Source of the DNA: Candidatus Omnitrophota bacterium
Lineage (GTDB): Bacteria; Omnitrophota; Gorgyraeia; Zapsychrales; Zapsychraceae
Direction: 5' to 3'
Assembly (NCBI GenBank): GCA_020632515.1
Contig: JACKFK010000006.1
Span: forward strand, 75,876 to 139,875
Length of the DNA stretch: 64,000 bases
In this document: in pieces, positions 57,001 through 62,241 of the stretch
Numbering within the stretch: the stretch's first letter is position 1
Layout: each line of letters begins with the position of its first letter
Made by a program: the position numbers

Positions 57001-60000
57001 TGTCTTTTGGTAAAGCAATGTGGAGAACGATAGATCGTTTTCCTCGTCAGTATATTCGTAAAAAAGGATATAAAGACGGATTTATTGGTTTTATGATGGC
57101 GTTTTTTGCGTCTTTGTATCAAATTATCAGTTATGCTAAATATTGGGAATTGAAAAACTTAAATAAAAAATCCTGAATAAAATTTTAAAGAGATGGCGGT
57201 TAAATATCTTCAATGTCCAACAACAATCATAGATCCAAGAATAAAATTATTTTTTTAGATAGAGATGGTGTAATTAATGAATTTCCTGGAAATGGCAAAT
57301 ATGTAACGCGATGCCGTGATTTTCATTTTATACCGGGGTCGCTTGAAGGAATTCAGCTGTTAACCAAATCTGGGTATAAAATCTTTGTTATTTCTAATCA
57401 GGCCGGAGTGGGGAAGAAGATTTTTTCCGAGAGGAAATTAAATCAAATTACCCGTAAAATGTTACGGGGAGTTAAAACAAGCGGCGGACGGATTAAGAAA
57501 GTTTACTACTCGATAAAACGTTCGAATGAAGGATGTCAGTTTCGTAAACCTAATATTGGTTCAATACGTAAAGCGCTGGCTTCAATGAATAAAGATTTGA
57601 AAGCCGCGCGCGGCGCGTATTTTATCGGTGACACGGAATCTGATATCAAGACAGGACGCAATGCTGGATGTAAAACAATTTTTGTTTTATCCGGACGAGA
57701 AGATTGTCTTTACATGCGACGTTGGGATGATATTCAGCCGGATTTTATTTTTAGAGATTTGCGTGACGCGGCTAAATATATATTGGGATTAGAAGATATT
57801 AAACCTATTTCCCGAAGATCAAAGCTAGCTAAAGTGATTATCAACAAAAAAAGAAGGAAGGTCGGAATTAATCTTCATCGCCGATCTACGGACTAATGTG
57901 ATATGCGTTAGTTTCTAATTAGAGAAAATCGCGTGTTAGGTTTGGTAGTTAACCATTTAAAATCTGACAACTATCTTTTATTACGATCTCATCATAATTA
58001 AAATAAATGAAAATCCTTTGTATTCATGCCACAGCCGGAGCAGGACATCTCAAAGCGGCTGAAGCCATTCATAATGGATTAATCAAGCATACCGAACATC
58101 AGAGTTTTTTTGTTGACGCCTTAGATTACACTAATCCAATCTTTCAAAAATTATATCCCAAATCATACGCGTTTATTGTTTCGCGTCTGCCGAAGCTTTG
58201 GGGTTTTTTTTTCGCTCTTTTAGATCAGGTATGGATTCAGCCTTTGATGCGCTGGGGACGGCGCATTTATAATTACGTGAATACCAAAAGACTTCGGGAG
58301 TATTTGATAGCGATGGATTTTGATTATATTATTTCCACGCAGTTTTTATCAAATGAAGTGGCTTCGGCATTAAAACGTAAAGGGAAAATCCGTGCGAAGA
58401 TTATCACAGTGGTGACTGATTTTGATGTGCATCGGATTTGGCTGTCGAAAGGCGTGGATTATTATTGTGTGGCCAGTGATTGGACTAAGCGGAAAATTCT
58501 TACGCTTGGTGTCAGTGAAGAAAATGTTTTTGTAACCGGTATTCCGACGGATGAAAAGTTTAGTGTTCAACGCGATGTTGTTCAGCTAAAAGCAAAATTA
58601 GGCTTGCATAAAGATATTTTCACGGTGCTGGTTGCCACTGGTTCGTTTGGTATGGGGCCGATTGAGGGATTGATTGAAGCTTGTCAGGGGATGCAGGTTG
58701 TGGTAATTTGCGGACATAATAAAGCGCTTTATGAACGTTTGATTCAGAAAAACTATGATCTTGTCAAAGTTAACGGTTTGGTGGATAATATGTATGAATT
58801 TATGGCTGTCAGCGACGTAATGGTAACAAAACCGGGAGGGCTATCGATTTCTGAAGCCTTAGTAAGTGAATTACCGATGATATTCTTTAGTGCTATCCCC
58901 GGACAGGAAACAAATAATGTTAAAGTTCTGAAAGAATATGAAATTGGCATTAGCGATAAGTCAATTCAAGAAATTTCCCAAGAGTTAAAACGATTTCAGT
59001 CTTCCAAAGATGTTCATATGACTGCTTTAAAGAAAACCAAACGCTTGGCACGCCCCAACGCTGTTAATGATATTATTGCATTAATAAAATAGTTGCTAGT
59101 TGTATATTGTTGGTTGTTAATAGAGGTGTGCTAACAACAAGCAATTTAGCAACCACTCTCTGGTCGTTGTTTTCTGGCAACGAGCGACCAGTAATATTAC
59201 ACAATAAACAAATGACATTTCATCCCCCTAAAATTGCTGAAGTGGTTGTCGGTCTTCCTGTTGACGGACCATTTGATTATTCTCTCAATGAAGAATTGCA
59301 GAATAAAATTTCTATTGGGCAGCGTGTAAGTGTTCTTTTTAACCGGCGGAAGGTGGTTGGATACGTGGTTGGATTAAAGCAGGAAAGTACGTTTCAACGA
59401 TTAAATCCTGTCTTTAGTATTTTGGATGAATCGCCTGTATTAAGTGTAAAAGCGCTAAAACTAGTTAAGGCCTTTAGTGAACATTACGGCTGTTCTTTAG
59501 GGGAGGCGATTGAAGCGTATCTTCCTTCTGGATTGCGTAAGAATATTTCCTTTGCGACTGGAACATGTTTGGAAAATGACGACAATTTTACCGTTGATGA
59601 ATCGACACCTTTTTTAGTACATGACTTAAGTCGTAATAAGCGCTGGCCATTTATTATTAAGCAATTAGAAGCCTCTTTGGCCAAGAAGCAAGGAATCATT
59701 TTTTTAGTTCCAGAAAAATCACTTATTCCTATGGTAAAGGATAGGTTGATGAAAGAGTGTTCGGCAGAATTTACCGTGTTTGATAAGCCGTTATTAACAA
59801 AGGCTGAGGTAAATTTGTGGTTAACTGTTCGTCAAGGAAAAGCTGCGGTGGTGATTGGAACGCGGTCCGCGGTTTTTGCACCAGTGCAAAATCTTGGATT
59901 AATTGTTGTTTATGATGAAGAGAATGAATCATACAAGCAGGAACAATCCCCTTGTTATCATGTTCATGATGTGGTGATGATGCGTTCGAAAATTGAGAAC

Positions 60001-62241
60001 AGCAAAACGTTGTTTGTCAGTTCGGCACCATTAGCGGAAACATGGCGTCGATCACAAAAACAAAATTGGGAAAAGGTCTTTTTTACTAGTGAAGGTTGGG
60101 GGGATATACAAATTGTTGATATGACTAATTATAATCCCAGTAAGACATCCATTGTTTCATTTCCTTTGCAAAATAGTATCGCGAAAGTACTGGCTAACCG
60201 GGGGAAAGTTTTTCTTTTAATGAATCGAAAAGGATTTACAACTTTAACCCAGTGTAATCAATGCGGACATCAATTGAGTTGCCCTCGGTGTAATGTGCAT
60301 TTGGCATACATGTATTCCAAGAAAGTTTTGGCTTGTCGTCATTGTAACTTTACCATGCCGCTGCCAAAGCTTTGTCCGCAATGTCAGCAAGCTTATTTAC
60401 GTTCAATGGGTACAGGCACGGAAAAGTTGGAAAGTGAATTGAGTCGGATGTATCCGACGGCAATTGTTGAACGATATGAAAAGGAGAATGAGAAGTTTCC
60501 TCACCGTGCGGATATTGTCATTACCACACAAGCTATTTTTAAAGAAAAGGAAAATATCAAAGCTGATTTGATGGCGATTTTGAATTTTGACGCGGTATTA
60601 AACCGGTTTGATTTTCGTTCCGCGCAAAGGGCTTATTCTTTTTTAGTCAGTGCGCGCCAGTTAGCTCAGGAGAAGCTGCTTGTTCAAACACGAATGATGG
60701 AAAATCATTGTCTGCAATCGCTATTGAAAATGGATGTGGAGATGTTTTATCAACAAGAATTGCAGCATAGAAAAGATTTGCGCTTGCCGCCGTATGAGCA
60801 TATCATTGCTATAGGTTTACGTGGACGAAATGAAGATGATGTGTTAAAACGCAGTGATTTGCTTTTTAATGAATTGAACAAACGAAAGATTGATGATGTT
60901 GAAGTTTTTGAACCTCAACCAGACGCAGTACCGAAATTACGCGATAAATATCGGTACTCGATTGTTGTTAAAGGAAAATCCGTGCCAAAAGCATTGGCTT
61001 TAATTAAAGAAAGTATTAAAGATTTACGACGGAAGAAGGATGTAGTTGTTACGATTAATGTGGATCCATAAGTTTATCGGGTTTTTTGGTTATTAGGTTT
61101 ATTGTGTTATTGAGTTTGTTGTGTTTGTAGTTTTACGGGAATACAACCTAACAACCCAGAAAGTTAATTAACTCAATAACTCAAAAATTTAATTAACGAA
61201 GATTATTTTATTATGAAAATTATTTTCTTTGGTAGCGATGATTTCGCGCAAAAACATTTAGAAGTGTTGGTGGCCTCTTCCCATCAGGTCGTGGCTTGCG
61301 TCACTCAACCTGACCGACCTAAAGGTCGCGGCATGAAAGTTGTGCTTTCTCCGATCAAGGAAACGGCGCTTCGAAATACGATTCCGGTTTTACAGCCGGA
61401 TCAAATTAAAGATCCTTTGTTTATTAAAGACTTAGAAAGTTTTTCAGCGGATTTATTTGTTGTCATTGCCTATGGGCGGATATTGCCGGCAAAGATTTTG
61501 AATATCCCAAAGATTTTTGCCATTAATGTTCATGGTTCATTACTTCCTAAATACCGTGGGGCCGCGCCGATTAATTGGGCGGTTATTAATGGAGAGGCGC
61601 GATCCGGATTATCCATTATTAAAATGAGCCCTAAAATGGATGCAGGAGAAATTATCAGTCAGGCGGATGTTGTGATTGAGAAAACTGAAACCGCGCAAAC
61701 GCTTCGTGAAAAAATGATGAAAATTGGGGCAGAGCTTTTGCTTAAAACAATTGATAATATCGCAGCTCATAATGTCGCCTTAACACCTCAAGATGAGAAT
61801 GAAGTGACTTTCGCGCCGAAACTAACTAAAGACCTGGGACGAATCGATTGGCATCAATCTGCTGCAGCTATTTATAATTTAGTTCGTGGACTTTTGCCCT
61901 GGCCGAGCGCATATACATTGTATAAAGGAAAGCTTCTAAAGATTTTACAATGTGAACCGCTTGAGAAGGGTTATGATGGGTGTCAAGCCGGAGAAGTTGT
62001 GGGCATTGATCCAGAAGGAATTGTTGTTGCTGCCGGGCAAGGTGCGGTGCTGATTAAAGCGCTTCATCTTGAGGCTTCACAACGGATGGATGCAGCCAGC
62101 TTCTTAAGAGGGCATAAAATTGAAGTCGGTTTTCAATTTAACTAGAATTCTAAATGATTGCTAAACAATACACTTGACAATTTTGAGTTGAGGTTGTATT
62201 TTATACGTCTTGTGAATTTTGGATTAGATTATTATTAGTAA

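Follow-up and report, generated by a model that had tools for sequence, protein, structure and literature searches.

Can PriA still serve replication restart once its motor has been lost? This question is raised by a gene in a stretch of 64,000 nucleotides (nt) from a Candidatus Omnitrophota bacterium (contig JACKFK010000006.1, positions 75,876 to 139,875 of the forward strand), which we call the window and whose numbering we use throughout. The open reading frame (ORF) at 59212..61071 on the + strand encodes a homologue of PriA whose helicase motifs are degenerate; this ORF and all its elements described below lie on the + strand. Our analysis indicates that it is probably the orthologous priA of the class Velamenicoccia of the Omnitrophota, its motor inactivated and remodelled, acting as an ATP-independent scaffold for fork recognition and helicase loading.

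The ORF opens with an ATG and encodes 619 amino acids (aa) followed by a stop codon. An in-frame TTG at 59107 is a possible earlier start that would add 35 aa; since homologues start at residues 2-9 of the query and a public protein of identical sequence (P0001, ‘primosomal protein N’, Candidatus Omnitrophica bacterium) is 619 aa long, the ATG at 59212 is the likely start. No obvious Shine-Dalgarno sequence precedes this ATG. The identical protein is present independently in a metagenome-assembled genome (MAG) at NCBI and in the Logan assembly of run SRR14234113. Pfam searches matched the full models of the PriA 3′ DNA-binding domain (PriA_3primeBD, PF17764, 1e-23) and C-terminal domain (PriA_C, PF18074, 5e-15), gave a weak signal for the PriA zinc ribbon (Zn_ribbon_PriA, PF18319, 21.5 bits against a cut-off of 26) and yielded no match to DEAD, ResIII or Helicase_C in the protein. 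In phmmer searches against the PDB, the PriA proteins of Klebsiella pneumoniae (1e-62) and Escherichia coli (5e-60) were matched, with VHDLSRNKRWPF of the window protein standing opposite LAGITGSGKTEV of PriA. By homology, fold and synteny, the ORF encodes a full-length PriA homologue. The NCBIfam model TIGR00595 (priA, ‘replication restart helicase PriA’) covers residues 149-619 with 334.7 bits against a cut-off of 230.35, and automated annotation will on this basis assign a helicase activity that the sequence does not support.

As a preliminary description of the gene had noted by eye, the protein is collinear with E. coli PriA, with the N-terminal 3′ DNA-binding domain, IVIGTRSAVF, YKQ, four CxxC pairs and the C-terminal domain all present. 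The order of domains is 3′ DNA-binding domain, short linker, RecA lobe 1, RecA lobe 2 with an inserted Cys-rich region, and C-terminal domain. We used E. coli K-12 priA as the reference for a motif-by-motif alignment with the family (81 members). One genome per GTDB species was scanned, which gave 560 genomes with a relative, and the best 80 of these 560 (34-53% identity) were inspected; family and locus counts out of 81 include the window gene.

At the former Walker A motif (motif I; LVHDLSRNKRWPFII, aa 135-149, 59614..59658), the E. coli sequence GVTGSGKT is replaced by DLSRNKRW (HDLSRNKRW with the preceding histidine). The glycines are gone, the lysine K230 has become R144 and the threonine T231 has become W145. 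Across the family, the position of G224 is occupied by aspartate (D138) in 62/81 members, that of K230 by arginine in 53/81 and that of T231 by tryptophan in 73/81. The former Walker B motif (motif II; IVVYDEEN, aa 231-238, 59902..59925) lies between GTRS and YKQ, and because this stretch is gap-free and has 21 residues in both proteins, DEEH aligns to YDEE: D320, E321, E322 and H323 correspond to Y234, D235, E236 and E237, and the Walker B aspartate is gone. Motif III (LFVSSAP, aa 267-273, 60010..60030) has VSSAP in place of GSATP. In motif V (VITTQAIFKEKENI, aa 436-449, 60517..60558), TQMLAKGHHF of E. coli corresponds to TQAIFKEKEN, with TQ retained and KGHHF turned into KEKEN. The former motif VI (FLVSARQLAQE, aa 477-487, 60640..60672) carries a five-residue deletion relative to QVAGRAGR of E. 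coli; the missing residues, A582-G586, are the core of the GRAGR arginine-finger segment, and the gap is found in 81/81 members.

The preliminary description had already pointed to a Walker A motif without glycines and with Arg for Lys, and to a motif III changed from LGSATP to VSSAP, and the alignment bears out both. It had also read motif II as DEEN; the motif is indeed degenerate, but this register was off by one. The degenerate strings fall at motifs I, II and III whether judged by sequence alignment, by profile search or by a confident structure model. A search of the entire protein for the strings [AG]xxxxGK[ST], DE[AEQ][DH] and GRxGR found none of them, an intact GxxGxGK[ST] is likewise absent from the rest of the protein, and regular-expression and profile checks together ruled out a P-loop hidden elsewhere. 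The protein lacks every sequence hallmark of an active superfamily 2 (SF2) helicase; it is predicted to have no ATPase activity and is almost certainly not a helicase.

The elements that contact DNA have a different fate in the family alignment, where conservation peaks at FDY of the 3′-end pocket, GTRS(AVF), YKQEQxPxY, NR[RK]GF, the eight cysteines, GxGxEK and the TQ of motif V. The 3′ DNA-binding domain (aa 1-110, 59212..59541, PF17764) contains the 3′-end pocket with P16 and G19-P20-F21-D22-Y23, of which D22 and Y23, equivalent to D17 and Y18 of E. coli, are invariant in 81/81 members; the mean entropy of the domain is 1.77 bits, compared to 2.00 for the entire protein. In motif Ib (GTRSAVF, aa 216-222, 59857..59877), G216, R218 and F222 vary little or not at all. 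The equivalent of the aromatic-rich loop (YKQEQSPCYHVHD, aa 241-253, 59932..59970), located just after motif II, is strongly conserved and forms the lowest-entropy 20-aa block of the protein (1.38 bits); its E. coli counterpart inserts like a wedge at the junction of the fork (PMC10175261, PMC5175346). The single-stranded DNA (ssDNA) binding residues of motif IV (NRKGF, aa 338-342, 60223..60237) are conserved as N in 80/81, R in 76/81, R or K in 74/81 and G in 81/81 members, and their E. coli counterparts R427 and R428 bind ssDNA in the pore (PMC13594977). Taken over all conserved elements, the counterparts in E. coli structures touch the 3′ end of the nascent leading strand, the junction of the fork and the ssDNA of the lagging strand (PMC5778457, PMC10175261, PMC13594977, PMC5175346).

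The Cys-rich region (aa 346-395, 60247..60396), which aligns to that of E. coli and gives the weak PF18319 signal, has four CxxC pairs, C348/351, C357/360, C375/378 and C388/391. All eight cysteines, which in PriA proteins form two Zn sites, align to C436-C479 of E. coli and are kept in 79/81 members. The C-terminal domain spans aa 527-619 (60790..61068, PF18074). In place of the winged-helix domain, which spans approximately residues 110-200 in E. coli, the protein has a short variable linker (aa 111-130, 59542..59601; pLDDT 59-78, entropy 3.5 bits), where the phmmer alignment skips from chain residue 122 to 226. Since a canonical Omnitrophota orthologue, described below, also lacks the winged-helix domain, its absence is evidently ancestral in the Omnitrophota group and not tied to the loss of the motor.

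An AlphaFold2 model of the protein, built from a 59-sequence alignment, was confident (pLDDT 89.7, pTM 0.88). Foldseek searches with this model against the PDB returned only PriA structures as top matches, with E. coli PriA 8fak_H at a query TM-score (TMq) of 0.90 and an E-value of 2e-53 and the E. coli winged-helix deletion variant 6dcr_A at TMq 0.77; the next family, Mfd, was at TMq 0.39. 8fak_H is E. coli PriA in its fork- and PriB-bound state, with the Cys-rich region rotated up. The models of a degenerate and a canonical protein (m7a8d41dcc179 and m924ef2f47a04) both had TMq values of 0.87-0.90 to 8fak_H versus 0.75-0.77 to the apo forms. We considered the idea that the degenerate protein is locked in the fork-bound conformation and dropped it, because the canonical control model (P0287, pLDDT 82.8) shows the same preference, 0.87 versus 0.75-0.77, which is therefore not specific to the degenerate form.

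The loss of the motifs is a property of a large family. All 120 nearest proteins (44-53% identity, ~615 aa) have the same degenerate motifs; those among them that carry an organism name are all Omnitrophica or Omnitrophota, and one other is labelled ‘hydrothermal vent metagenome’. In the best 80 of the 560 species-representative loci, each gene is a single intact ORF, one of which ends at a contig edge, and the Walker A motif and the arginines of motif VI are found in 0/80. Hundreds of metagenomic proteins of this degenerate type also have uninterrupted sequences. Ratios of non-synonymous to synonymous substitution rates (dN/dS, Nei-Gojobori) for the closer pairs were 0.07-0.22 over the entire gene and 0.07-0.33 over the former ATPase lobe 1. 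Because of these ratios and the intact ORFs in the 80 inspected genomes, the gene is not a pseudogene; the degenerate PriA is retained under purifying selection and is not decaying. The survey of orthologues thus found the degeneration shared throughout the relatives examined, and no sign of pseudogenisation accompanies it.

Of the best 80 loci, most bear the label Omnitrophota, many ‘uncultured Planctomycetales’ and a few no phylum name. The contigs of L003, L010, L013, L016, L019, L020 and others are titled ‘uncultured Planctomycetales bacterium’ despite an Omnitrophota-type priA in matching gene context, which looks like a taxonomic mislabel in MAG submissions.

In an exhaustive HMMER search against 1.84 billion cluster representatives, the degenerate forms extended down to ~375 bits, and the first canonical PriA followed at 374 bits (P0195, 674 aa, with GITASGKT, DEEH and GRAGR). 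Its relatives, likewise labelled Omnitrophota, form a family of ~666 aa (P0287 and P0350 among them) in which the DEAD, ResIII and Helicase_C signatures are complete. These canonical proteins share with the window protein the domain order and the lack of a winged-helix domain, but they have intact GITASGKT, DEEH, GSATP, KG.DFP and GRAGRG motifs and are ~47 aa longer. The window protein is 32% identical to P0287 over its full length and differs from it by deletions of ~27 aa before motif I, which include the Q-like ‘LTxEQ’ helix, of ~12 aa before motif V and of 5 aa in motif VI.

Both forms occupy the same place in the genome. In the window, priA is preceded by genes for a HAD-family phosphatase (57213..57896) and an MGDG-synthase-like glycosyltransferase of family GT28 (58007..59092), and followed by the gene for methionyl-tRNA formyltransferase, fmt (61213..62145), all assigned by Pfam and on the + strand. 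The order HAD, GT28, priA, fmt is found in 73-78 of the 81 degenerate loci, including the window (HAD in 73, GT28 and fmt in 78 each). Of four canonical loci that we looked up, among them that of P0287 in the closed 1.43-Mb genome CP070780.1, three have the order HAD phosphatase, (epimerase), GT28/MGDG-synthase-like, uracil-DNA glycosylase (UDG), priA, fmt, the UDG gene between GT28 and priA being a difference from the window. On the fourth contig, only 121 bases lie upstream of priA, and fmt is the second gene downstream; fmt is thus the first or second downstream gene in 4/4 canonical loci. Given this common slot between GT28 and fmt, the degenerate and canonical Omnitrophota PriAs are orthologues at one locus in different lineages, one of which has lost the motor. 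A reading of the degenerate gene as an additional paralogue next to a canonical PriA at this locus is ruled out by the position of all four canonical genes just upstream of fmt, with GT28 in all three loci that have upstream sequence, and also by the split between classes. According to the taxonomy of Seymour et al. 2023 (PMC10066038, supplementary table), the genome names of the degenerate forms belong to the Zapsychrales (Zapsychraceae, Aceulaceae) and Gygaellales of the class Velamenicoccia, while the canonical P0350 belongs to the Tantalellales of the class Gorgyraia. The loss of the motor is therefore lineage-specific, affecting Velamenicoccia, and not phylum-wide. In the per-genome KO table of that paper's supplement, consulted for the copy number of priA, all counts among the rows listed are 1.

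In a rough neighbour-joining tree, the degenerate forms emerge as one grade or clade out of the canonical Omnitrophota group, with partially degenerate proteins of 650-700 aa in between (P0233, P0243, P0244, P0245, P0220, P0251, P0264). Different motifs are lost in each of these: P0244 has an intact Walker A motif and has lost DExH (motif II) and GRAGR (motif VI), P0233 retains KT and has lost the glycines, and in P0251 the P-loop is deleted. This diversity suggests that selection on the motor was relaxed and that its motifs may then have decayed in parallel. A profile search from the partially degenerate proteins returned mostly canonical PriAs from several phyla. Separately, we found long PriAs of 816-834 aa without recognizable Walker A or DExH motifs (P0221, P0404, P0405, P0407, P0410, P0411, P0413, P0414, P0415), most of which, P0407 and P0410 excepted, retain GRAGR, and one of which is labelled ‘subsurface metagenome’; they may represent a further, independent lineage of pseudohelicases.

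A PriA without a motor has precedents. The E. coli variants K230R, K230A and K230D are devoid of ATPase and helicase activity, but in vitro they still build primosomes and in vivo they support the PriA-PriB pathway; the motor is necessary in the PriA-PriC route and on forks with a double-stranded lagging arm (PMC5778457, PMC10175261, PMC13594977). The PriA of Deinococcus radiodurans, in which the same lysine is an arginine, has no ATPase or helicase activity and binds ssDNA, forks and DnaB (Lopper, Boone and Morrow 2015, PMC4504706). The proposal in the preliminary description of a natural helicase-inactive PriA is supported by the alignment, the structure model and the intact ORFs with shared motif loss in the relatives; the idea as such is not new (PMC4504706).

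The K230 mutants, including K230R (priA300), share with the window protein a change at the position of the P-loop lysine. They are, however, one-residue changes made in the laboratory; the motor around them is intact and has PriB, DnaT and DnaC as its partners, whereas in the window protein evolution has rebuilt the entire nucleotide site and the PriB-docking residues are not conserved. Among the neighbour genes examined in the 64-kb window, nothing relevant to priB or dnaT turned up. The resemblance to D. radiodurans PriA (PMC4504706) extends to degenerate Walker A and B motifs with Arg at the K230 position, to the clade-wide occurrence of the trait in Deinococcus-Thermus and to fork binding and helicase recruitment without ATP, which we infer for the window protein from its sequence. 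In contrast to the Deinococcus-Thermus proteins, the window protein comes from the Omnitrophota, within the Planctomycetes-Verrucomicrobia-Chlamydiae (PVC) group, and has a sister class with the canonical enzyme. It is also degenerate in motifs III, V and VI, where GRAGR is deleted, and in the Q-like helix, and it is short (619 aa) and without a winged-helix domain. Since the nearest canonical relatives are Omnitrophota PriAs, the loss in Omnitrophota is likely to be independent of that in Deinococcus-Thermus, with which we compared it by published description. With the PriAs of E. coli and K. pneumoniae (PDB 4NL4, 6DCR, 8FAK), the window protein shares the fold, the 3′-end pocket, the position of the aromatic-rich loop, the motif IV arginines and the eight zinc cysteines, but it is only ~25% identical to them and has neither their winged-helix domain nor their motifs for ATP binding and hydrolysis.

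By analogy with E. coli K230R and D. radiodurans PriA, and from the pattern of conservation, we envisage the window protein as a scaffold that presumably retains both fork binding and a role in restart. It would recognize abandoned forks and D-loops through the 3′-end pocket, the aromatic-rich loop, motifs Ib, IV and V (TQ), the Cys-rich region and the C-terminal domain, and would serve as a passive platform to which the replicative helicase is recruited directly or via a partner. It would neither bind nor hydrolyze ATP, nor unwind a duplex lagging-strand arm. Its action would therefore be limited to forks that already expose lagging-strand ssDNA, or would depend on another helicase to expose it.

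Several observations sit uneasily with this proposal and would fit a repurposed PriA scaffold that binds particular DNA structures in repair, recombination or chromosome maintenance, with restart left to a second, canonical PriA or to an unrelated loader. The residues that dock PriB in E. coli are not kept (D438 is Q350, S481 is Q393, T482 is A394 and H483 is Y395, with a family consensus of Q, G/S, S/G and Y at these positions). What was the P-loop is now, across the family, a new and semi-conserved motif, HD...RW, in which W145 and D138 are the prominent positions, a hint that it has acquired a role in structure or interaction. In addition, a sub-group of the degenerate PriAs (~550-586 aa) has lost all four CxxC pairs; it comprises the loci L050 (6532-8361) and L053 (6464-8164) and the proteins P0150, P0153, P0160, P0161, P0165, P0166, P0174, P0176, P0210, P0231, P0236, P0238, P0240 and P0260, and at least two of its members are labelled Omnitrophota. 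The Cys-rich region of E. coli PriA is required for primosome assembly. The Cys-less forms are thus PriA derivatives reduced still further; they show that elements deemed essential for this process in E. coli can be lost, which leaves room for a changed function.

Other evidence makes repurposing unlikely overall. By synteny, the gene lies precisely where the sister lineage has its canonical priA, which marks it as the orthologue and not as an extra copy, and the elements that contact the fork in E. coli structures are its best-conserved parts. No second priA was detected by phmmer in the window or in the flanks of the 80 related loci (up to ~22 kb each), although a reach confined to these regions leaves some room for a copy elsewhere. 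Finally, E. coli can carry out restart with an ATPase-dead PriA, and Deinococcus is inferred to do likewise (PMC5778457, PMC4504706).

A bolder version of the scaffold proposal holds that the motor has been converted rather than merely lost. The HD...RW motif would form a plug, with Trp145 filling the adenine/phosphate site, and the RecA lobes would be held in a fixed, DNA-clamping geometry, making PriA a purely structural clamp for forks, able to load DnaB directly with no need of PriB, DnaT or ATP. We regard this as speculative and quite unlikely. If it were true, the canonical enzyme of the sister class, the partial intermediates and the Cys-less derivatives would constitute a natural series of the minimal parts of PriA needed for restart, set in streamlined, possibly host-dependent nanobacteria.

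That the window protein is still an ATPase or helicase and uses non-canonical residues, for example K143/R144 in place of the P-loop lysine and E236/E237 as the catalytic base, seems very improbable to us. The basic pair K143-R144 and the acidic D235-E236-E237 do lie at the old positions of motifs I and II, and the string DEEH is kept in some members. Against this, the P-loop glycines are all gone, the Mg-coordinating Thr has given way to a bulky Trp and the Walker B Asp to a Tyr, the Q-like helix is deleted, as is the GRAGR segment in every member, and the residues at the positions of motifs I and II vary widely within the clade. K230R alone abolishes the ATPase of E. coli PriA, according to PMC4504706, which cites Zavitz and Marians 1992. 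A decaying pseudogene, or an artefact of assembly or annotation, might be suspected from the joint loss of many catalytic motifs and the several short deletions relative to the canonical orthologue, but is effectively refuted by the uninterrupted ORFs in the 80 inspected genomes and hundreds of metagenomic proteins, the family-wide loss, the low dN/dS, the confident fold prediction and the identical protein from two assemblies, and we give it practically no credence.

The degenerate Omnitrophota PriA, read as a motor-dead scaffold, would be the second and larger natural case of a PriA pseudohelicase, comprising an entire class of very small Omnitrophota bacteria, with up to ~560 species-level genomes matching, and with the ATP site rebuilt. 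A motor-dead PriA had earlier been shown by experiment only for Deinococcus, and in our literature search we found no paper linking PriA and Omnitrophota. The case contradicts the textbook view that the helicase motifs of PriA are conserved everywhere but in Deinococcus. Given priA300 and Deinococcus, the surprise is modest; its value lies in a clean experimental pair of orthologues, one canonical and one degenerate, which could reveal the purpose of the PriA motor and the surfaces that are enough to recognize a fork and load the helicase.

Several further features of the locus and the window deserve mention. The gene priA stands at the end of a run of genes for cell-envelope glycans (51454-59092), whose members are a GT2 glycosyltransferase, a mannose-1-phosphate guanylyltransferase-like protein, a GT9 heptosyltransferase, a DegT aminotransferase, a second GT2, the GmhB-like HAD phosphatase and GT28; the order HAD, GT28, priA, fmt is common to both Omnitrophota classes examined. 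Scans for promoters and terminators around priA gave counts at or near the level of shuffled sequences, and an Rfam scan of the window found one tRNA only. The 119-nt spacer between GT28 and priA (59093-59211) folds into a stable branched hairpin (−34.3 kcal/mol, z = −2.8, with 1/200 shuffled sequences as stable). Its position corresponds to that of the UDG gene in Omnitrophota with a canonical PriA, a gene that is absent here.

Near the start of the window, the ORF 570-1634 encodes a Sua5/YciO/YrdC domain, involved in the synthesis of N6-threonylcarbamoyladenosine (t6A), fused to a low-molecular-weight phosphotyrosine phosphatase domain. The GC content is ~37%, the GC skew is strongly positive throughout 1-64000 (+0.10 to +0.32 per 2-kb window), and nearly all ORFs of at least 120 aa are on the + strand, which suggests that the window belongs to a long, strongly strand-biased segment of a replichore.

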